From Bryobacteraceae bacterium (GTDB lineage Bacteria > Acidobacteriota > Terriglobia > Bryobacterales > Bryobacteraceae), in contig JASIAM010000264.1 of assembly GCA_030041985.1 (NCBI GenBank), positions 1 to 17,241 of the forward strand: DNA of 17,241 bases. Reading direction: 5' to 3'. A program made the position numbers and the translations under genes. Of this stretch, positions 90 to 10,766 are shown one piece after another. Numbering within the stretch: position 1 is the stretch's first letter; each line of letters begins with the position of its first letter. The notes under the pieces are model-generated. The model did no database searches. It was not told the DNA's origin and saw only the letters and a program-made list of their open reading frames with translations.

Positions 90-755
90 TCAGGTTTCCT
101 TCTTCACAAATATCTGTGGCAGCAACTCTGGACGGTGGGTCAGCATGGTCGTCAACACGACGGAGGTCAATACGCCCTCTGCAACAGCCAAGGGCAGCTG
201 CATCGGCGCATAACCCATAAAGAAGATCACCCACTGCTTCAGCAGCGGCACATGGCCGTGCAGGCTCAAGGCCAACTCGAATGCGGCCACCAGGTAGGTC
301 ACCAAATCACCGACAAACCCGGCCACACCGGCCGCAAGCCACACCGGACACTCGATCGCACGCAGTATTTTCCAAAACACATAGCCCGACAGCCCGCCGC
401 AAATGCCCATGGAGAATGTATTGGCGCCGATGGTGGTTATTCCACCATGACCAAAGAAAATAGCCTGGAAAAACAAGACAATGGTGGAGATTACCGCGGT
501 GGCAAACGGGCCGATTAGAATCGCCGCCAACGCCGTGCCGCAGGGATGCGAACAGGATCCTGTGACAGGCACAGGTAGGTGCATGGCCGAGATCACAAAA
601 ACCGCGACACCCATCATGGCCAGAAACGGCTTGTACGACAGGTTTTCGCGGACTCGCCGCTTGATTTCGAAGATACCGGGCACCACAAACGCGACGGTGG
701 CTGCGTACCAACCTGCACATGCCTCTGCAGTTAGGATGCCGTCTTCGATATGCAT
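90..755 (-). CDS. cbiM: CbiM/NikM-like cobalt/nickel transporter substrate-capture membrane component
   Basis: Complete 221-aa ORF with stop at 90-92. The N-terminus MHIEDGIL matches the Met1-His2 metal-ligand N-terminal motif characteristic of CbiM/NikM. Strongly hydrophobic, multi-TM composition. Partner genes (cbiN/Q/O) would lie left of the window edge. Confidence 0.7.
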   Translation of the reverse strand: MHIEDGILTAEACAGWYAATVAFVVPGIFEIKRRVRENLSYKPFLAMMGVAVFVISAMHLPVPVTGSCSHPCGTALAAILIGPFATAVISTIVLFFQAIFFGHGGITTIGANTFSMGICGGLSGYVFWKILRAIECPVWLAAGVAGFVGDLVTYLVAAFELALSLHGHVPLLKQWVIFFMGYAPMQLPLAVAEGVLTSVVLTTMLTHRPELLPQIFVKKET

Positions 756-1061
756 TTAATCTCTCTCCTTTTCATTTGGCACGAGATGCGCCATTTTCCC
801 AAATGCTGCGACTTTTGCGTTTGACTTGATTGACATTCGGCTCGAAGCCGCCACAAAGGTGATTTGCTCCGGCTGAGAAATAGATACGAACCCCTGCCAA
901 CGTGGGCTCGCGGAACAGACAAACGCGGAAATTCATTGGAACGGAGCAACAAGTCTCCCTGCATTCACTGGATGAAACGGCTCATTCGGGCAGCAACTGG
1001 CCCTAGCATCCCGATTTTACATCTGAACACCTAACCGCCATAGGCCAAAGGGAGAATAGAG

Positions 1062-1085
1062 CGGTCACATGACGGTCACTGACCG
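1062..1085. promoter_or_regulatory. Overlapping GGTCA/TGACC inverted-repeat array (candidate operator)
   Basis: Sequence cGGTCAcaTGACGGTCAcTGACCg. It contains GGTCA-ca-TGAC and a perfect GGTCA-c-TGACC palindrome. It lies in the divergent cbiM / SPFH-ATPase intergenic region. Confidence 0.35.
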
Positions 1086-1170
1086 GCATGTAACCTATGA
1101 CAACCCAAACGAACTGCTCCACTTACGTATAAACGAACGTCGTGTCCAGACATCCCGTACTCCAGAGATT

Positions 1171-1179
1171 GTGCTAGAA
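1171..1179 (+). promoter_or_regulatory. Candidate extended -10 element (TGcTAGAAT)
   Basis: TGn-TAGAAT is ~205 nt upstream of the 1385 start codon in an AT-richer patch. There is no good -35. Confidence 0.2.
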
Positions 1180-1384
1180 TTTCGGCGATGGACATTTCGC
1201 CCTACGGTACCTTAGATGCGGGGGCGATTGACGCTCATCCATCACCGATTTAACTCAGCGGAGGCCGGTTCTGAATCTGCGTAAGACAGCCGCAGGCTTG
1301 GGTATTCCAAGCCGTCAGCTGCTCCTCCACTGGGGCATCGAGAGCGGGTAATAATCGAGGGCGTTTGTCCCTGGAGCACGATGT

Positions 1385-2497
1385 ATGTTTACCGATCAGA
1401 ATAATACCGACTTCCCCAACGAGGAGGAGCCGACCTTCCGGAAAGGGCTGCGCATCGGCGTAGCGGCCCTCGTTTTGGCTGCGGCGGTCGCTGCTGCTTG
1501 CATCGTAATGGTGCCGGCAGGTCAGGCTGAAGTCATTACGCGTTTCGGTAATCCCATTCGCGTCATTACGGAGCCGGGACTGGCATGGAAATGGCCGGCA
1601 CCGGTGGAAAGCGCGATTCCGATCGACTTACGTCTTCTTACCACGGCCACCGGGTTAGAGGATGTCGGCACGCGCGACGGTTTACGGGTTCTCGTGCAGG
1701 CCTATGTGGCTTGGCAGGTGCCGAGTAACCCTCAAGAGATCCGGCAGTTCCTGCGATCCGTGCGGAATCAGCCGAACGAGGCCGCCCGGCAGTTGCGCAG
1801 CTACGTCAATGCCGATCTGCACGTCATCTCGAGTAATTTTAACCTCGCCGATCTCGTGAATGTAGATCCGCAGAAGGTGCGTCTGAATGCCTTCGAGGAC
1901 CAGGTGCGTGCGAGGATCGCTCCCCGAATGCAGCAGGTGTACGGGATCGCTGTTCGGCAGATTGGGATCGAGCGGATGACATTGCCGGACGAAACGCTGG
2001 CGGCCACCGTGGCGCGTATGAAAGCCGATCGGGAAACCGTTGCCGCACAGCTAACGGCAGAGGGCCTTGAGAAAGCCGCTGCCATTCGCGCTGATGCCGA
2101 AAAAGAAGCGCGCGAAGTGGTGGCCGAGGCAAGCGAGAAAGCAGCGCGTACGGAGGCGGACGCTCAGCAGGCGGCGGCTCGCACCTACCAGCGCGCGTAT
2201 CAGAGTGACCCGAATCTCTACGAAACGCTGCGCTCGCTGGATACGATCAATCAGATCGTCAGCCACAGCACAAACCTTATTATGCGTACTGATGCGGCCC
2301 CATTCCGAATGCTGGTCGACGGGCCGCCGGGCGTAAAGAACGCCACTGCCAACGCCGCGTCTGTTGCCCAGCCGGCGTCCCCCGCGGCGAACTCGGCTAA
2401 TCCAACGGAGACGCCGGCTCCTGCAAAGGCTTCCCAAAAGCCGCCAGTTCCGAAGAAAAAAGACGCGAGTATCCCGGAGGTCGCCGGAAGGCAATGA
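1385..2497 (+). CDS. HflC-like SPFH/band-7 domain membrane protein
   Basis: 370 aa with one N-terminal TM helix (GLRIGVAALVLAAAVAAACIV). SPFH core begins VPAGQAEVITRFGNP...EPGLAWKWP. C-terminal region YGIAVRQIGIERMTLPDETLAATVARMKADRETVA...YQSDPNLYETLRSLDT aligns by eye with the HflC coiled-coil and C-terminal motifs. Stop overlaps the next start (ATGA at 2494-2497). Confidence 0.8.
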   Translation: MFTDQNNTDFPNEEEPTFRKGLRIGVAALVLAAAVAAACIVMVPAGQAEVITRFGNPIRVITEPGLAWKWPAPVESAIPIDLRLLTTATGLEDVGTRDGLRVLVQAYVAWQVPSNPQEIRQFLRSVRNQPNEAARQLRSYVNADLHVISSNFNLADLVNVDPQKVRLNAFEDQVRARIAPRMQQVYGIAVRQIGIERMTLPDETLAATVARMKADRETVAAQLTAEGLEKAAAIRADAEKEAREVVAEASEKAARTEADAQQAAARTYQRAYQSDPNLYETLRSLDTINQIVSHSTNLIMRTDAAPFRMLVDGPPGVKNATANAASVAQPASPAANSANPTETPAPAKASQKPPVPKKKDASIPEVAGRQ

Positions 2498-3606
2498 TAG
2501 GCGCGCCCGATTATTCGCCGGCCGGCGTGGACGAAGAGCCTCGCCGTGTTCTGGTTGGGCCGCAGCCCGGTCCGATCGCACAGTCGGTCGTGCTTGGTTT
2601 TCGGGCCTTGTATGTGGCCACAGTGCTGCTTGCGCTCTTCTGGGTCACAAGCGGTGTGCGCGAAATCGCATCCGACAGCCAAGTTGTCGTGCGCCGGTTC
2701 GGTCGCATCGTGCGTGCGCAGCAGACTGGTCTGCTCGTGGCGTGGCCGCGTCCTATCGAGCAGGTCCAGGTCTTGCCCGGACCGCAGCGGCAATTGACTC
2801 AAGACGTATCCGTGCTGCTCGCGCCCAGCGGAAAGTACCAGGAGGTGGTGTGGGGCGTCAACTCGAACACCAGAGCGTCGCGTACAGCCGCACCTCAGCA
2901 TGCCGAAGCATACCTGACAGGCGACGGCAACGTCGTACTCATCACGGCAAGCCTGATCTACCGGATCAACGATCCGATCGCGTACGCGCTCGAAGAGGAG
3001 CACGTCGGCCCCGCGCTCGATCGGCTTTTCCGTGCCACCGCAGTGCGGATCGCGGCCGGTAGAAACCTCAATGATTTTCTGGTCGTGCAGACCAATGCCG
3101 ATCAATCTCGCAATGGGCAAGCTCCCATCGCCCGGCGTAGTGAAGTCCGTGAGTCATCGCTTAGAGAGATAAACGATCGCCTACACGCTCTCGAGGCCGC
3201 CGGCGCCGGGCTGGGAGTGGAGATTGAGCAGATTAACCTGACGCCGTCATTGGCGCCCGCTGCCAAGGCCGCCTTTGATCAGGTGATTGTGGCGGATCAG
3301 ACTGCCGAGCGCGGCATGGCCAATGCGCGCACCGATGCCGAACGCCGCCGCCAGCAGGCCAACACCGAGGCCGAACAATTGGTCAGCGCCGCGGAGGCGA
3401 CAGCGAAGGAGACCGTAACCAAAGCTTCGGTCGATACGGCAAGCATCCTGGCACTCGTGCACGACGAGAGGACGTTTCAGAGCCGGGACAGTTTGTTATT
3501 GCGGGAATACCGTGCTCGAGTGGCGAGTATAATGAGCACCGGGCGAGTAACGTTAGTCGACCCAAAGAGCGGCGCGCGCGTCGTATTACCAGGAAAACAA
3601 CCATGA
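2494..3606 (+). CDS. HflK-like SPFH/band-7 domain membrane protein
   Basis: 370 aa with an N-terminal TM helix (ALYVATVLLALFWV). SPFH core is VVVRRFGRIVRAQQTGLLVAWPRPIEQV. HflK-like segments: YLTGDGNVVLITASLIYRINDPIAYAL and GVEIEQINLTPSLAPAAKAAFDQVIVADQTAERGMANARTDAERRRQQANTEAEQ. Translationally coupled on both sides (ATGA overlaps at 2494 and 3603). Confidence 0.8.
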   Translation: MIGAPDYSPAGVDEEPRRVLVGPQPGPIAQSVVLGFRALYVATVLLALFWVTSGVREIASDSQVVVRRFGRIVRAQQTGLLVAWPRPIEQVQVLPGPQRQLTQDVSVLLAPSGKYQEVVWGVNSNTRASRTAAPQHAEAYLTGDGNVVLITASLIYRINDPIAYALEEEHVGPALDRLFRATAVRIAAGRNLNDFLVVQTNADQSRNGQAPIARRSEVRESSLREINDRLHALEAAGAGLGVEIEQINLTPSLAPAAKAAFDQVIVADQTAERGMANARTDAERRRQQANTEAEQLVSAAEATAKETVTKASVDTASILALVHDERTFQSRDSLLLREYRARVASIMSTGRVTLVDPKSGARVVLPGKQP

Positions 3607-3651
3607 GTGCCACACCAGTTACCAGGGAAACAACCATGAGTGCCACAGCCA
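3586..3651 (+). repeat. 33-bp tandem direct duplication spanning the ATPase RBS/start and the upstream-gene stop
   Basis: TTACCAGGAAAACAACCATGAGTGCCACA (3586-3614) is repeated as TTACCAGGGAAACAACCATGAGTGCCACA (3619-3647). There is 1 mismatch in 29 nt, and the period of 33 nt is in frame. Confidence 0.85.
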
Positions 3652-5666
3652 GAATCGATCCGTCCTGCGCTCCTGGCGGTGGGACCTGTTTCGCGACGGC
3701 TGATGCCGTCACTTCGACTCTCCAGATTGACGCGACTCTCGGGACCGACCGATCAGGGCAGTTGCTGAATCGGGCCGAGCGTTTTGTGCTCGGTCTCCGA
3801 CTCACGCTGGCGCTCGCGGCGCTGTGTCTGGTCGCGGTTGCCAGTGGCGTGTATTTCTTCTTGCCGGCTGAGCGCGGGGTCGCCGATCTGGTGGCCGGTG
3901 TAGGCGCTGCTCTGGTTGCCGTTCCGGTATTCGTCGAGGCTTGGGCAAGCTTGAAGCATCCAAGCCTCGACGGCATTAGCGAGCGGTTGGTAGCTTTGGC
4001 GCTCATCGCCGCTTGGGCTACCGGCGATCTCATGACTGCTGCCATCCTGCCGATCATCATGACGATCGGCCATATATTGGAAGAGCGAAGCATGCTGGGT
4101 TCGCATGAGGCCATTAGCGCCCTGACCCGCTTGACCGAGGCTGATGTCCGGCGGCGACGGCCTGGTGGCGGCGTAGAAGTGGTGTCCGGCACGAATCTGC
4201 GGGTCGGCGACCTTATTGAATTGCGTGCCGGAGAGCGCGTGCCGGCCGACGGAATTGTGCGTCAGGGTGCCTCGACTCTTGACCTCGCCTCCTTAACTGG
4301 TGAATCGGTGCCGGTCGAAGTTGGCGAGGGTAACGAGGCACCGGCTGGCGCGATGAATCTGGATGGTCTGCTGCTATTGGAAATCATCCGTACCGGTGAA
4401 GAGAGCACCGTCGGACGGATCATTACTTTGATGCGGGACGCCGAGAGTTCCAAGCCACCCCTCACGCGGATGCTTGACAAATACGCTGGTCAGTACATGG
4501 CACTGGTTCTGCTCGTGGCCGGGGGCACATGGCTGATCAGCGGAAGCACGCCGGCGATGCTCGCCGTGCTCGTCGCGTCCTGCCCGTGCGCCCTAGTGCT
4601 GGCTGCGCCGGCAACCGCCGTCGCCGCTATCGCCGTGGCCGCGCGCCACGGCATCCTGATCAAGGGATCTGGCTTCCTGGAAAACCTGGCCGACATTTCC
4701 TCGGTGATCTTCGACAAAACCGGCACCCTGACCACGGGCAATCTGCATCTGGCGCGCGTCGAGCCGACCGAGGGTGCCGATCCAACTGTGCTCAAGCGTC
4801 TTGGTGCAAGTCTCGGTGCCGCAAGCAACCATCCGCTCAGTCGCGCCGCCGCCGCTGCGGTACCGAAAGAGGAGCGCCTGGGCCTCGAAGACGCTCGCGA
4901 GCTGGGCGGCTTTGGCGTTACCGGCATGTACGAGGGAGAAATCGTCGTGATGGGGCGCGCAGACTGGTTCGAGCGTCTCGGCATCGCGGTGCCCGCGCCG
5001 CCGGCGCACGTCGGGCCGATTGCCGGCGTCAGCCGGAACGGAAAGTTCTTAGGCTGGCTACTGTTTTACGATCAGTTGCGCAGCAGCGCTTCCGAAGCGG
5101 TGCAGGACCTGAAAGGGCTCGGCATCGAGCACATGGTGCTGTTGACCGGAGACCGGGCTGCAGTGGCCCATGAGGTGGCAGCCGAAATCGGTGTGGACGA
5201 AGTCTGGGCCGAGATGCTACCCGAGCAGAAGATGGATCGCGTTATGCGCGAGATCAAATCCGGCCACCGGCCCATGGTGGTCGGGGATGGCATCAACGAC
5301 ACGTTGGCGCTTCGCGCCGGGGCCGTCGGTGTGGCGATGGGCACGCAAGGATCTGATATCGCCTTGGCGTCAGCCGACCTCGCGTTGATGACCAACGATC
5401 TGCGGCGCCTCGGCACCTGCATTCGGCTCAGCCGCCGCTGCCGCCGGACGATCGCCGTCAACATCGTGATGGGCCTGGGATTCACGTTTGGCCTCGTGGC
5501 GCTGGCGGGCTTCAACGTTCTGGGCGCCTCAGCGCCGATCATCGCGGCGCTCCTGCACAACGTGAGTACGTTCCTGGGAATTGGCAACTCCGGTCGCTTG
5601 CTGCTCTTCGACGAGACGGATGCGGTTGCAGCAGCGACGGTCTCACAGACGCCAGTGACGACGTGA
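3603..5666 (+). CDS. P1B-type heavy-metal-translocating P-type ATPase, short form lacking an N-terminal HMA domain
   Basis: 687 aa. CPC motif in SCPCALVLAAP (P1B signature). Phosphorylation motif DKTGTLT. HP motif SNHPLS. Hinge motif GDGINDTLAL. Followed by MGTQGSDIALASADLALMTNDL. No GMxCxxC metal-binding domain at the N-terminus. An alternative in-frame start at 3636 is created by the tandem duplication. Confidence 0.9.
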   Translation: MSATPVTRETTMSATARIDPSCAPGGGTCFATADAVTSTLQIDATLGTDRSGQLLNRAERFVLGLRLTLALAALCLVAVASGVYFFLPAERGVADLVAGVGAALVAVPVFVEAWASLKHPSLDGISERLVALALIAAWATGDLMTAAILPIIMTIGHILEERSMLGSHEAISALTRLTEADVRRRRPGGGVEVVSGTNLRVGDLIELRAGERVPADGIVRQGASTLDLASLTGESVPVEVGEGNEAPAGAMNLDGLLLLEIIRTGEESTVGRIITLMRDAESSKPPLTRMLDKYAGQYMALVLLVAGGTWLISGSTPAMLAVLVASCPCALVLAAPATAVAAIAVAARHGILIKGSGFLENLADISSVIFDKTGTLTTGNLHLARVEPTEGADPTVLKRLGASLGAASNHPLSRAAAAAVPKEERLGLEDARELGGFGVTGMYEGEIVVMGRADWFERLGIAVPAPPAHVGPIAGVSRNGKFLGWLLFYDQLRSSASEAVQDLKGLGIEHMVLLTGDRAAVAHEVAAEIGVDEVWAEMLPEQKMDRVMREIKSGHRPMVVGDGINDTLALRAGAVGVAMGTQGSDIALASADLALMTNDLRRLGTCIRLSRRCRRTIAVNIVMGLGFTFGLVALAGFNVLGASAPIIAALLHNVSTFLGIGNSGRLLLFDETDAVAAATVSQTPVTT

Positions 5667-5795
5667 TCTTTGATCCGGGGTGGTTGAAGGAAGACCTTCT
5701 CGGCCAAGCGTGTTCGGTACTCGAAGCGAAATTGATCAAGCACCGGACATTGGGCACGACGCAGGCCGCTTTGGGTATACTCGGCCGACGACATC

Positions 5796-6497
5796 ATGGA
5801 TAGCATCCTCGAAGTAGGCCACCTCTCGGTGCACTTTGGCCGACGCCATGTGCTGCAGGACTTGAGCTTCAACGTCGAACGCGGAACCTCACTCGCCATT
5901 CTCGGGCCGAACGGCGCTGGCAAGACGGTTCTGTTCCGGTCGCTGATTGGTGCCACGCCCTATGACGGCACAGTACTCTGGGCCGCAGGCACGCGTATCG
6001 GCTATGTGCCTCAGAAACTGGATCTCGAACGTGACATCCCGATCACGGGACTCGATTTCTTAACGGCACGGACCGCGCTCGCGCATGGCATACGGACCGA
6101 TGTCTCGCGTGTGCTGGCGCTCGTCGGCATTCCCCCTGACGTGGCGAATCAGCCGATCGGCGTGCTCTCGGGCGGTCAGTTTCAGCGGCTGCTACTCGCC
6201 TTCGCTCTGGTCGGCGAGCCGAACGCGCTGCTGCTCGACGAGCCAACGGCGGGGGTGGACGAGCCAGGGCAGGAACAGATCAACGAGCTTGTCAGCGTTC
6301 TTCAGCAAAATCACGCGCTGACCGTCCTGTTCATCTCGCACGAGCTCACAGTGGTGAGCCGCTACGCCACCAACGTGCTCTGCCTCAGCCGTGGCGTATC
6401 GTGCTTTGGTCCGCCACGCACCATTCTCACGCCGGATCTCCTGCGTGATATGTACAGCACTGACATGCACTTCCACGTTCACGAGCACGACCGATGA
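5796..6497 (+). CDS. znuC: ZnuC/MntB-like metal ABC transporter ATP-binding protein
   Basis: 233 aa. Walker A GPNGAGKT, signature LSGGQFQRLLLAFAL, Walker B LLLDEP. His-rich C-terminal tail HFHVHEHD, typical of zinc/manganese-type ABC ATPases. Confidence 0.8.
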   Translation: MDSILEVGHLSVHFGRRHVLQDLSFNVERGTSLAILGPNGAGKTVLFRSLIGATPYDGTVLWAAGTRIGYVPQKLDLERDIPITGLDFLTARTALAHGIRTDVSRVLALVGIPPDVANQPIGVLSGGQFQRLLLAFALVGEPNALLLDEPTAGVDEPGQEQINELVSVLQQNHALTVLFISHELTVVSRYATNVLCLSRGVSCFGPPRTILTPDLLRDMYSTDMHFHVHEHDR

Positions 6498-7252
6498 CCG
6501 CTGACGCGCTGGCGCTCGCGGTGGCAATGGCCGTGGCCTCCGGCCTGATCGGCTGTTTTGCCGTGATGCGGCGGATGTCGCTCGCGGCCGACCCACTGTC
6601 GCACGTCGCGCTGCCCGGCATCGGCGTCGCCCTGGCGCTGCGGATCCATCCCATCTTCGGCGCCGTGGCGTTGCTGTTTTTCGGCGCGCTCCTGGTATGG
6701 GCCCTCGAGCAACGGACCCGAGCCGCCACCGAAACGATGATCGGGATTGTCTTCTCCGCGGCGCTGGCCGTAGGAAGCATGATGACCTCTGGCGAGAATC
6801 TGATCGAAGCGCTGTTCGGCGCCAGCGGCCCGCCCAGCACATCGGAATTGATCTTCGGCCTCGCCGGCGCATTCGCCGTAATCGTCTTCATCGTTACCCA
6901 ACGGGACAGCCTGATTGTGATGCTCGTCTCGCCGGAAGTGGCGCGCACGACTGGGATTAACGTTGGCCGGCTGAATCTGCTGTATCTTGAGGCCTTTGCA
7001 CTGACGATTGGGCTGGGGTTGCGCTACCTGGGCGTTTTGTTGATGGGGGCCCTGATTATCGTGCCCGCAGCCACCGCGAAGGGGATGGCACGCAATCTCA
7101 CGGGCATGCTCTACATGGCGGCCGGCATCGCTGTACTGGCCACCGTAGTCGGCACGTGGGCAGCGGTTTGGCTGCACCGGGCCAGCGGCCCGCTAATCGT
7201 GATGACAGCGACCGGCGTCTTCCTGCTGAGCCTTACGCGAAAACCCGCCTAA
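6494..7252 (+). CDS. znuB: ZnuB-like ABC-3 family metal transporter permease
   Basis: 252 aa, very hydrophobic multi-TM. ATGA overlap with the znuC stop (6494-6497). Size and composition fit the ZnuB/MntC/TroC permease family. Confidence 0.75.
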   Translation: MTADALALAVAMAVASGLIGCFAVMRRMSLAADPLSHVALPGIGVALALRIHPIFGAVALLFFGALLVWALEQRTRAATETMIGIVFSAALAVGSMMTSGENLIEALFGASGPPSTSELIFGLAGAFAVIVFIVTQRDSLIVMLVSPEVARTTGINVGRLNLLYLEAFALTIGLGLRYLGVLLMGALIIVPAATAKGMARNLTGMLYMAAGIAVLATVVGTWAAVWLHRASGPLIVMTATGVFLLSLTRKPA

Positions 7253-7269
7253 TTGATCGTCAGCTAGGT

Positions 7270-7310
7270 TCTATTCGATATCCCTTCCGCATACCGAGGG
7301 ATTGTGGTAG
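7270..7310 (+). terminator. Candidate stem-loop terminator after znuB
   Basis: ATCCCT (7270-7275) pairs with AGGGAT (7287-7292) around an 11-nt loop. It is followed by TGTGGTAGCATTTTAT, 18 nt after the znuB stop. Confidence 0.3.
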
Positions 7311-7384
7311 CATTTTATAGCTAGATATTTCGCCCCGATAAGCGAATACTAAGTCATTGGTATTGACGAGGTCTCCCGTAGTTC

Positions 7385-9370
7385 ATGTGGCTAATATTCC
7401 TAATCGTTTTTACGTGGTTCTGCGTACTCATCTATGACGTATTTTCGATAGGTGATCAACCGCCCGAATCGAAAGAATTTGTATTTCCCCGCGCCCATCG
7501 CCTGACGCGTGGACTGACATTGCTGTACGCCAGTGCGGTGATAGCAGTTGTGGTGTGGCTGACCCTCGGATCCCTGGGAATGAGCGCGCCGCGCGAGTGG
7601 GTTGAGGGTGGCTGGGGGGCCATCGCGTTGCCGACGCTCCTTGTGGCGCTCACTGGCTCGGTCGCCACACTAGCCCTGACCGGCGCGCGATTCCGGTACG
7701 CATCGGGTGGGGAGAGTCAGAATACCGAGACGCAACCGGGGCCGTTGCTCAAGTGGATGGTGAATCCCGGATTCGCCGCCCGGCAGGGACAAGCCATCAT
7801 TGTGACGACTGGTGCGGTGCTCGTATGGATCGCGGAGCGGTGGCTGTGGCCGGTGGAGACATCCCCAAACGCAGAAGTGGCGGCCAACGTCGGGATCGCC
7901 GTCGGTGCTGCGCTCGCGCTCGCCTTCGCATCGCTCATGGCGGAGCGCCTTGTGAACGCCTTCCCTGAGCCTCAGTTACCCGAGGCCCCGACGATTCGGC
8001 GTCTGTTGCTTTTTACAACTCTGATGCTCGTTGCGGGGGCATGTTTGGAAATTGTACATGGTGCGGGTGTCACGTGGCTTCGCTGGCTCGTCTGCGCCTT
8101 GGCTTGCCTCCCGGGGTTGATCGTGTTCGAGCTCATCCTGCGTGCGCTGGGCCGGCTCTTCCTCCCAGCACCGCTACCCGCCGCCGCCACCGCCGTCACG
8201 GATAGCTTGGTCGCTGCCTTGGTCACCAGGAGACCTCGAGCGCCTGGCACCATCCTTCGCACCCATCTCGGATTGGATTTTTCAAGGAGTTGGGCCCTTG
8301 CGTTCTTGAGCAAGGCGCTCCTACCGGCCATCTTCGGGACCGGTTTGCTGTGTTGGGGATTGAGCGGCGTGAAGCTGATCGATCTGGGGCAGCGCGACAT
8401 TTACGAACGATTTGGCGCTCCGGTCGCCGTGCTCGGACCCGGCCTCCACATGGTGCTGCCGTGGCCGATCGGACGGTTGCGTCCCGTCGAATACGGCACC
8501 ATTCACTCCGTGGCGATCGGCGTCGACCAGGCGGAACCGGACAAAGCGATGTCGGCCGATGCGGAGGCCCCGGCCCCGCTCGCCCTGAATCGACTCTGGG
8601 AAAGCTCACATCCGGGGCAGGCCTACTATTTAGTGCCGAGCGCGGGTATTGGTTCCGAAAGCGTCCAGGAAGTCGCCACTGAGATCAGTGTGCTGTACCG
8701 CGTCGGCTTGAGCGACGAGGCAGCTTTGAACTCGGTGTACAGGGTCGCCGATCCCGAATCGCTGATCCGAGACGAGGCTGGCCGCCTAGTACTTCGTTTT
8801 TTTAACTCGCGGACGCTCGAGGCGGTGATCGGGGCGGACCGCGAGAACATGGCGGGCGCGTTGCGCGATCAACTGGCGGCTGATATCGATTCGCATCAGG
8901 CGGGTATCGAAATCGTCTCTGTGCTCATCGAGGAAATTCATCCTCCGGCTGGTGCGGCCGCGGCGTACCACGCGGTTCAGGCGGCGCAGATCAATTCGAC
9001 GGCAAGTATCTTCGAAGAACAGGCACGGGCCGAACTCAAGGCCGGCACCGCGCAGCAGGAGGCACACCAGATGACGACCGCTGCGGATGCGAAAGCTGAC
9101 GAGACACGGCGTGTCGCCGATGCCGCAGCGTATCGCTTCGATGCGGATCGGCGCGCAGCGGCCGCCGGCGGGAAGGCCTTCGTGCTGGAGCGCTTCTACA
9201 GCAATCTGGATGCGGCCCTGTCGAAGGTTCCGGTGACGATCATCGATCACCGAATCAACTCGGCAGACGGCCCTATTCTCGATCTGCGTGAGGCAGCCGG
9301 AAGCATCGGATCTTCTAAGCCTGCACCCGTTCCGCCCTTGTTGCCCCCGGGGATTATGGACAAGCACTAG
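7385..9370 (+). CDS. Polytopic membrane domain fused to a C-terminal HflK-like SPFH/band-7 domain
   Basis: 661 aa. The N-terminal ~300 residues contain many hydrophobic helices. The SPFH core starts VKLIDLGQRDIYERFGAPVAVLGPGLHMVLPWPIGRLRPVEY. HflK-like motifs IEIVSVLIEEIHPPAGAAAAYHAVQAAQ and RFYSNLDAALSKVPVTIID follow. The first ~70 nt are unusually AT-rich, so the true start may be downstream. Confidence 0.65.
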   Translation: MWLIFLIVFTWFCVLIYDVFSIGDQPPESKEFVFPRAHRLTRGLTLLYASAVIAVVVWLTLGSLGMSAPREWVEGGWGAIALPTLLVALTGSVATLALTGARFRYASGGESQNTETQPGPLLKWMVNPGFAARQGQAIIVTTGAVLVWIAERWLWPVETSPNAEVAANVGIAVGAALALAFASLMAERLVNAFPEPQLPEAPTIRRLLLFTTLMLVAGACLEIVHGAGVTWLRWLVCALACLPGLIVFELILRALGRLFLPAPLPAAATAVTDSLVAALVTRRPRAPGTILRTHLGLDFSRSWALAFLSKALLPAIFGTGLLCWGLSGVKLIDLGQRDIYERFGAPVAVLGPGLHMVLPWPIGRLRPVEYGTIHSVAIGVDQAEPDKAMSADAEAPAPLALNRLWESSHPGQAYYLVPSAGIGSESVQEVATEISVLYRVGLSDEAALNSVYRVADPESLIRDEAGRLVLRFFNSRTLEAVIGADRENMAGALRDQLAADIDSHQAGIEIVSVLIEEIHPPAGAAAAYHAVQAAQINSTASIFEEQARAELKAGTAQQEAHQMTTAADAKADETRRVADAAAYRFDADRRAAAAGGKAFVLERFYSNLDAALSKVPVTIIDHRINSADGPILDLREAAGSIGSSKPAPVPPLLPPGIMDKH

Positions 9371-9719: not shown

Positions 9720-10235
9720 ATGCACATTCTCAATTGGATTGAACAGACCTCATTCAGTACCTGGGTGCGGGAATCTCCTTCGCTTTTCGCATACCCTACA
9801 ATTCTCTTCTTTCACACCGTGGGCCTGGCATTTCTGGTCGGTCCAAGCATTGCAATTGTGGCAAGGGTGCTCGGGCTGGCTCCGAAACTACCGTTACGGC
9901 CTTTTGAGAAGTTCTATCGCATCATGTGGTTCGGATTTTGGATCAATGTGGTTTCCGGCATTGTGCTCCTCGCCGCGGACGCTACCACCAAGCTGATCAA
10001 CTGGGATTTCTACGTAAAGCTGGGGTTCATCTCAATTGCCGTAGTGGTTCTCAAACGGCTACGAAAACGCCTATTTCATAACCCACAATTGAAGGGGGAT
10101 TGGTCCATTCCGGAGAACGCGAAACCTCTGGGAATCGCGTTGCTCCTATGTTGGGCGGGCGCCATTGCGGCGGGAAGGTTTATGGCCTACCTCGGCCCTG
10201 TGTCCGGCGCGCCCGGACTAAACAATCGATTCTAA
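9720..10235 (+). CDS. Hypothetical 4-TM membrane protein (paralog A)
   Basis: 171 aa. Strong SD GGAGGGG 3-9 nt upstream of the ATG. Four predicted TM helices, with a conserved His in TM1 (FFHTVGLAFLVG). Paralogous to the next ORF. Confidence 0.6.
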   Translation: MHILNWIEQTSFSTWVRESPSLFAYPTILFFHTVGLAFLVGPSIAIVARVLGLAPKLPLRPFEKFYRIMWFGFWINVVSGIVLLAADATTKLINWDFYVKLGFISIAVVVLKRLRKRLFHNPQLKGDWSIPENAKPLGIALLLCWAGAIAAGRFMAYLGPVSGAPGLNNRF

Positions 10236-10265: not shown

Positions 10266-10766
10266 ATGTATTTTGTCGATTTATTTTCCGATTTGCTCAA
10301 CCGAATCGGGCTTCACGGAGTCGTGGCCCACTATGCCTGGATTGTTCCGACGTGCCAAACCATTCATTTCTTTGGACTAGCCCTCCTGATGGGCTTCGTC
10401 GCCCTTTTCGACCTGCGCATGCTGGGGTTCGGAAAGGGACTCTCGATGTTGCATTTGAACCGTTTTCTTCCCTTGGCTGCCATTGGATTCGCCATAAACA
10501 TGATTACCGGCACAATCCTGTATGCGGGAGACCCCTCGATGTTCGGCCACAACGTTGCGTTCGGATTCAAGATGCTCTTCATTTTGCTGGCCGGGATCAA
10601 TGTGTTGGTGTTTTACATTAGCGGCACCGCCCGGACGGTCGAAGCTTTGGGGCCTGGGGATGACGCGCCGCTTGCCGCCCGGGTCATCGGAGGCACTTCG
10701 CTATTCCTGTGGGTGGGAGTCATGTTCTGGGGCCGCATGCTGCCTTTCATTGGCAATGCATTTTAG
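10266..10766 (+). CDS. Hypothetical 4-TM membrane protein (paralog B)
   Basis: 166 aa. SD AAGGAG upstream. Same helix layout as 9720-10235, with corresponding motifs (IHFFGLALLMG vs FFHTVGLAFLVG; AINMITGTILYAGD vs WINVVSGIVLLAAD). Confidence 0.6.
   Translation: MYFVDLFSDLLNRIGLHGVVAHYAWIVPTCQTIHFFGLALLMGFVALFDLRMLGFGKGLSMLHLNRFLPLAAIGFAINMITGTILYAGDPSMFGHNVAFGFKMLFILLAGINVLVFYISGTARTVEALGPGDDAPLAARVIGGTSLFLWVGVMFWGRMLPFIGNAF

Follow-up and report, generated by a model that had tools for sequence, protein, structure and literature searches.

Where a stop codon and the next start codon share their letters, a short tandem duplication copies the end of one gene, the beginning of another, and the ribosome-binding site that serves the second. 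Such a repeat, with a period of 33 nt, lies at the junction of an SPFH-family gene and a heavy-metal P1B-type ATPase gene in an acidobacterial contig. The questions raised by this locus are whether the second copy is real, how and when it arose, and what it does to translation of the pump. An earlier note on this DNA had offered three readings, i.e., a slipped-strand or replication event, an assembly artefact, and a means of adjusting how efficiently the pump is coupled to the SPFH genes. We analyzed the window, i.e., the whole stretch of 17,241 nucleotides, and compared the junction with that of related loci. The second copy is real, and we consider it likely that it arose by a lineage-specific duplication of the slippage type that was tolerated and fixed, that coupled translation now likely starts at the first of two in-frame start codons, and that the effect is probably close to neutral. 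The features under discussion are collected in Table 1.

Table 1. Positions of genes, repeat copies and junction elements in the window
Feature	Position	Strand	Description
CbiM gene	90-755	-	upstream of SPFH1 and divergent from it
SPFH1	1385-2497	+	370 aa, SPFH/Band 7 membrane protein, HflC-like; PF01145, 86.6 bits; ATGA overlap with SPFH2
SPFH2	2494-3606	+	370 aa, SPFH/Band 7 membrane protein, HflK-like; PF01145, 38.8 bits (cut-off 23.6)
Heavy-metal P1B-type ATPase	3603-5666	+	687 aa from ATG1, 676 aa from ATG2; PF00122, PF00702
Copy 1	3586-3618	+	33 nt; last six SPFH2 codons (LPGKQP), TGA, overlapping ATG1, ATPase codons 1-5 (long form)
Copy 2	3619-3652	+	34 nt; second SD-like site (AGGG), second ATGA, ATG2
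ATGA stop/start overlap	3603-3606	+	SPFH2 stop TGA 3604-3606 and ATPase ATG1 3603-3605
Second ATGA	3636-3639	+	ATG2, 29 nt 3' of where SPFH2 terminates; contains a further TGA in frame with SPFH2
Older 18-bp tandem duplication	3715-3749	+	in frame; 3715-3731 and 3733-3749, repeat family D3, 76% identity, spacing 18

Structure of the repeat and the genes it joins

The repeat finder aligned 3586-3614 with 3619-3647 at a spacing of 33 nt, with 28 of the 29 bases alike (97% identity). TRF reported 3586-3652 with a period of 33, 2.0 copies, 94% matches and 2% indels; the score of 120 is far above every other repeat score in the window. The identity of these adjacent, head-to-tail copies is far beyond chance: at least 28 matches out of 29, at positions no more than 100 nt apart, are expected about 5e-10 times in 17 kb. 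When one gap is allowed, the similarity reaches 3652 (31-32 of 34 positions, with one indel), and the layout is that of a 33-nt copy adjoining a 34-nt copy without a spacer. The TRF consensus unit is 34 nt, copy 1 being shorter by one base. Positions 3580-3655 read gtcgta TTACCAGGAAAACAACCATGAGTGCCACA ccag TTACCAGGGAAACAACCATGAGTGCCACA gccag aatcg. The sole mismatch in the core is at 3594 versus 3627, where copy 1 has GGA and copy 2 has GGG, and the longest exact stretch common to both copies is 20 nt. At the 3' ends, copy 1 reads CACA-CCAG, whereas copy 2 reads CACAGCCAG in the window and CACACCCAG in L002, one of the additional contigs described below.

Each copy contains an ATG in the frame of the ATPase, at 3603 (ATG1) and 3636 (ATG2), so that the longer form begins with 11 extra residues, MSATPVTRETT. 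An SD-like site lies 8 nt 5' of each ATG, AGGA in the case of ATG1 and AGGG in the case of ATG2. The pairing energies of -4.3 and -5.1 kcal/mol, scored against an assumed canonical anti-SD (the host 16S rRNA lies outside the window), are both weak and about equal. The description of the repeat in the earlier note is borne out in all its details. In the SPFH2 frame, copy 2 still encodes LPGKQP followed by a stop (TGA 3637-3639). We also considered an SPFH2-pump fusion produced by stop-codon readthrough or frameshift; it would be barred by this second TGA in the SPFH2 frame.

The assignment of the downstream gene to the P1B-type ATPases agrees with the SCPC (SCPCAL) and DKTGT (FDKTGTLT) motifs of its translation; the protein scores 498 bits against TIGR01525 (cut-off 346). 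The upstream protein had been called HflK-like, which holds as a statement of resemblance, the Band_7 profile being passed, and fails as an assignment to the HflK equivalog, for which SPFH2 scores 69 versus the required 159 bits (TIGR01933). SPFH1 likewise scores 106 versus 134 bits in the corresponding HflC comparison (TIGR01932). By these profile scores, SPFH1 and SPFH2 are predicted SPFH-family proteins, and not demonstrable orthologues of HflK and HflC.

The two-copy structure in other assemblies

The second copy could be the product of mis-assembly, e.g., of two strain alleles that differ by an A/G SNP and were joined in tandem. The data are metagenomic, and a SNP between the copies is what co-occurring strains would produce. 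However, exact-protein look-ups retrieved three further contigs, one from an NCBI assembly (L001, GCA_030044935.1) and two from Logan assemblies (L002, SRR21679867; L003, SRR21679866), and all three have the identical two-copy structure with the same A/G difference between the copies. These contigs are distinct from the window, with 42 mismatches in 3.8 kb, 31 in 5.2 kb and 22 in 4.1 kb, respectively (98.9-99.5% nucleotide identity). Differences are also found close to the repeat: L001 carries a synonymous SNP 10 nt 5' of copy 1, and L002 has C where copy 2 of the window has G (position 3648). Four contigs, which represent at least three assemblies or samples and differ in their flanking SNPs, therefore share this structure.

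The properties of the repeat itself also speak against an artefact. Assembler k-mers are normally longer than 20 nt, so that an exact repeat of 20 nt cannot make a loop in the assembly graph, and the full repeat of ~67 nt is short enough for one short read. Moreover, the junction is imperfect (a 1-nt indel), unlike the product of a graph loop, the ORF remains open, and a separate in-frame duplication is found nearby. The repeat is thus neither confined to a single assembly nor exact over a k-mer length, and we reject the artefact reading of the earlier note, which has become extremely improbable.

Origin and age of the duplication

In a protein search, the nearest homologues of the ATPase are 87-88% identical and have 660-681 aa, compared to 687 aa in the window. 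The junction is present in a single copy in three of these relatives (L053, L054 and L056; 87-88% protein identity) and in L004 (81% protein identity), which comes from a Candidatus Acidiferrales MAG, with a clean 33-column gap in the alignment. The single-copy junction of these four loci reads ...GTCGTATTACCAGGAAAACAACCATGAGTGCTACCCCTAGT..., and their DNA runs on colinearly from copy 2 of the window (ATGAGTGC.AC.CC.AG.ATCGATCCG). We also searched 41 other independent loci, from Acidobacteriota, Gammaproteobacteria (mostly Steroidobacteraceae) and Alphaproteobacteria, and found an exact tandem run of at least 12 nt between -80 and +120 nt of the SPFH2 stop in none of them. Comparison with orthologous loci, which the earlier note had proposed as a check, thus gives one copy in the four nearest relatives, which serve as outgroups, and two copies in three strains of ~99% identity.

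Searches for further members of the lineage gave little. An exact scan of metagenome contigs with the 20-nt core of the repeat retrieved L052 only, an unrelated chance match, and exact look-ups of the 676-aa ATG2 form of the ATPase, of SPFH1 and of the ABC ATPase encoded downstream retrieved neither a single-copy allele nor further contigs of this lineage. Clustering at 90% identity leaves the ATPase and SPFH2 each as the only member of its cluster. The copy number is exactly two in all four strains (the window and L001-L003); it should be noted that these four contigs probably come from one study, and "fixed" here refers to this small sample.

Judged from the distribution among these loci, the duplication is derived and confined to this lineage. 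By the same comparison, it is dated as younger than the split from relatives that are ~79-89% identical to the window in DNA, and as older than the ~1% nucleotide divergence among the four strains. The word "recent", used in the earlier note, therefore needs qualifying: the event predates the divergence of the strains, and the copies since differ by 1-2 substitutions and a 1-nt indel.

The differences between the copies can be polarized. The GGA of copy 1 (3592-3594) is ancestral, as in all relatives, and copy 2 has GGG. Copy 2 of L002 keeps the ancestral ACA CCC AG., in which the window has a G in place of a C. In copy 1 the sequence is ACA CC- AGT, and AGT at that codon is also found in the two nearest relatives; copy 1 is thus without one C of the CCC run that is found in copy 2 of L002 and in the nearest relatives. 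Provided that the ancestor had CCCAGT, as in L053 and L054, the microhomology at the breakpoint would be at most one T (GTA/T...CAG/T).

Representing the history of the junction as "ancestral-duplicated-fixed", we propose the following course of events: (i) the ancestral state would have been one TTACCAGGAAAACAACCATGAGTGCCACACCCAG junction, in which the SPFH2 stop overlapped the ATPase start (ATGA); (ii) an event of the replication-slippage or template-switch type would have occurred before a narrow acidobacterial (Bryobacteraceae-like) population diversified, in its ancestor, by the simplest route a head-to-tail doubling of the 34-nt unit TTACC...CACACCCAG, with copy 1 minus one C; (iii) the duplicated junction would then have been fixed. 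The missing C may reflect either two steps, in which a duplication of 34 bp was later compensated by the loss of 1 nt, or one imprecise event of 33 bp, and the data fit both paths. We infer the mutational mechanism from the products; the slipped-strand or replication-type duplication proposed in the earlier note is supported by the single copy in the relatives and by the clean insertion of 33 bases of duplicated sequence in the window. The locus is a clean, well-dated example of a short tandem duplication that fell on a stop/start overlap without breaking either gene.

Two in-frame starts of the pump

The N-termini of homologues, MSAT(R/P/Q)(N/S)IDPSCAPDGG.CF, align with MSATARIDPSCAPGGGTCF after the second ATG. 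Because the nearest relatives are single-copy and the homologue N-termini align at this point, ATG2 is the ancestral start of the ATPase. For annotation this matters in practice: the longest ORF, which gene callers pick, has 687 aa and starts at 3603, whereas the orthologous start is at 3636.

SPFH2 and the pump overlap by 4 nt on the same strand. An ATGA overlap between these two genes is found in 36 of the 41 independent related loci, and the same -4 overlap occurs at two other junctions in the window, between SPFH1 and SPFH2 (2494-2497) and between the ABC ATPase and ABC-3 genes (6494-6497). Overlaps of -4 nt bring about translational coupling by termination-reinitiation, and in published reporter experiments coupling needs the overlap and is nearly lost at ~20 nt (Huber et al. 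2023, PMC10666635; see also Huber et al. 2019, PMC6728339). By this requirement for overlap, ATG1 (-4 nt) is favoured over ATG2 (+29 nt).

Copy 1 leaves the C-terminus of SPFH2, its stop and the ATGA overlap unaltered, and copy 2 preserves the ancestral ATPase start, now 29 nt past the stop. We infer that coupled ribosomes probably start at ATG1: those finishing SPFH2 would most likely reinitiate there and produce the pump with MSATPVTRETT added to its cytoplasmic N-terminal tail. ATG2, with an equally weak SD of its own, may act as a minor, uncoupled start that gives a product of ancestral length.

A perfect 34-nt duplicate would place ATG1 at the head of a 33-codon ORF in another frame, which would cross ATG2 and stop at a TGA near 3702. 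Copy 1 has 33 nt, with one C missing, and ATG1 is therefore in frame. A conserved ATGA coupling would constrain which indels survive, and the frame-preserving version alone is observed.

The presence of two in-frame ATGs, each with an SD-like site of similar strength 8 nt upstream, is also what would be expected of an adaptive dual start, in which ATG1 yields pump that is stoichiometrically coupled to SPFH2, whereas ATG2 is SD-driven and independent, resulting in partial uncoupling or in two isoforms. The ATGA context is kept in both copies, both copies are retained in all four strains, and the frame-preserving 33 nt are expected under selection for a usable ATG1. However, two starts are found in one narrow lineage only, whereas the relatives, including the 41 other independent loci, have one. 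The 11 added residues, which result from translating the RBS and the end of SPFH2 in a different frame, contain no recognisable motif and are a by-product. Furthermore, the lone SD change between the copies (GGA to GGG) makes the site neither clearly stronger nor clearly weaker, and internal initiation at ATG2 would compete with ribosomes elongating from ATG1. Taken together, these observations make an adaptive dual start unlikely. A stronger version of it, in which pump translation would be split into an ATG1 channel locked to SPFH2 and an independent ATG2 channel, with the shortening of copy 1 selected as a compensatory change, is distinctly doubtful; if true, it would represent a natural micro-duplication that tunes the stoichiometry of a conserved SPFH-scaffold/P1B-ATPase module. 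The role of coupling modulator suggested in the earlier note may apply, but nothing requires it: the ancestral ATGA is intact, the copy number does not vary, there is no RNA structure, and the N-terminal tail is of variable length in homologues.

Tolerance of the pump N-terminal tail

The preferred reading, i.e., a duplication that was tolerated, agrees with the properties of the protein segment in which it falls. Homologues differ in both the length and the sequence of the ATPase segment that precedes the first membrane helix. In the window, the same tail contains the older 18-bp duplication, ~100 nt downstream of the 33-nt repeat, with units TCGACTCTCCAGATTGAC / GCGACTCTCGGGACCGAC that encode STLQID / ATLGTD. 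Both the window and L002 carry this second duplication, which is a clean insertion of 18 bases compared to all four relatives. The 11 and 6 inserted residues account for the length of 687 aa, compared to ~670 aa in relatives. Since the tail is length-variable among homologues and carries a second in-frame duplication, the 33-nt duplication is probably tolerated and, on the assumption that this tolerance of indels extends to the 11 residues, probably neutral or almost neutral overall.

The tail has another feature. A Cys pair (DPSCAP.GG.CF, C-x5-7-C-F) is conserved in the acidobacterial clade (window 3660-3700, ATPase residues ~20-32), and proteobacterial homologues have CC(T/G)P in its place. 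The Cys pair may serve as a short metal-binding motif in place of the usual HMA domain, for which no Pfam model gave a match in the ATPase.

The repeat as a nucleic-acid element

Direct repeats at a spacing of 33 nt are three helical turns apart, and could be a protein-binding site or part of an mRNA structure that controls translation of the pump. In this connection, the 11-nt segment TGGCACTCGTG (3449-3459, inside SPFH2) is 91% complementary to both CATGAGTGCCA copies in the two start regions (3602-3612 and 3635-3645; inverted pairs I4 and I5). This complementarity is probably due to chance; the local fold spanned 3560-3690. Within that interval the predicted fold has no excess stability over shuffled sequence (z = +1.2; 180 of the 200 shuffles gave an equally good or better fold). 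A search of the window against Rfam gave no match, and a scan of 700-7500 found no excess of promoter- or terminator-like sites over shuffles. On the basis of this z value and of the Rfam result, we reject a role of the repeat in RNA structure. In addition, all relatives that share the operon are without the repeat, and its content is fully explained by the duplicated coding and RBS sequence. A functional nucleic-acid element of either kind is thus very improbable.

Gene context

The duplication matters little in itself, and the gene context holds the more interesting biology. A module of SPFH1, SPFH2 and the P1B ATPase is found in every related locus for which upstream DNA is available (L004-L056), and its range includes Acidobacteriota, Steroidobacteraceae and other Gammaproteobacteria, and Alphaproteobacteria. 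Overlaps of -4 nt are reported to be enriched among subunits of heteromeric complexes (PMC10666635). Because the ATGA overlap is conserved in most of the related loci and because of this enrichment, the gene arrangement hints at a stoichiometric assembly of an SPFH scaffold and a metal pump. Within the library searched, nothing relevant was found on operons that combine SPFH and P-type ATPase genes.

The pump proteins of the acidobacterial lineage are 74-78% identical to those of many MAGs of Steroidobacteraceae and other Gammaproteobacteria (L005-L042), whereas the identity of SPFH2 is only 50-64%. The high identity of the pump across phyla suggests that the module may have been transferred horizontally.

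Downstream of the ATPase come the genes of an ABC ATPase and an ABC-3 permease, and that of a third SPFH protein, larger than the other two. In this protein (7385-9370, 661 aa) the N-terminal half is long and hydrophobic and precedes a Band 7 domain at residues 332-548; the protein is conserved 3' of the ABC/ABC-3 pair in L054 and L056. Further downstream, two adjacent ORFs (9720-10235 and 10266-10766) of ~170 aa each are strongly hydrophobic-looking and have no Pfam match. On the other side of the module, a 630-bp intergenic region (756-1384) separates the CbiM gene from SPFH1. This region has no Rfam match at the gathering threshold and no convincing promoter consensus in the scan from 700; regulatory sites that respond to metals may be located here.

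Comparison with known systems

The 33-nt repeat resembles bacterial micro-duplications that result from slippage or template switching: the copies are head-to-tail, without a spacer and of high identity, the length is a multiple of three, the site is in a length-tolerant protein tail, and the outgroups are single-copy. Unlike typical cases, it spans a gene boundary and contains stop, start and RBS, not only internal codons; in addition, the copies of 33 and 34 nt point to an imprecise event or to a later 1-nt deletion. A literature search on short tandem duplications retrieved no directly comparable case.

Several bacterial genes encode two isoforms from in-frame starts, e.g., infB (IF2 alpha and beta), clpB and cheA. 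In these genes, conservation extends to both starts, and a functional domain distinguishes one isoform from the other. The ATPase resembles them in having two in-frame ATGs with an SD-like sequence before each. However, its second start comes from a lineage-specific duplication, and the difference amounts to 11 residues without a recognisable function.

The phase-variable simple-sequence repeats of contingency loci are likewise tandem repeats close to a translation start. Here, in contrast, the unit is long, there are two copies only, the frame is preserved, and there is no switch behaviour; the copy number is constant among the four strains, and we rejected a phase-variable repeat as an explanation.

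Finally, the overlap of the SPFH2 stop with ATG1 is like that of ATGA-coupled gene pairs (PMC6728339, PMC10666635), the likeness here being one of sequence. Unlike such pairs, the locus has the overlap motif twice, 33 nt apart, and the ancestral start is the downstream, non-overlapping one. The 33-nt repeat therefore belongs to an ordinary class of mutation, and what is slightly unusual is its position, in which a stop, an RBS and a start were copied together.
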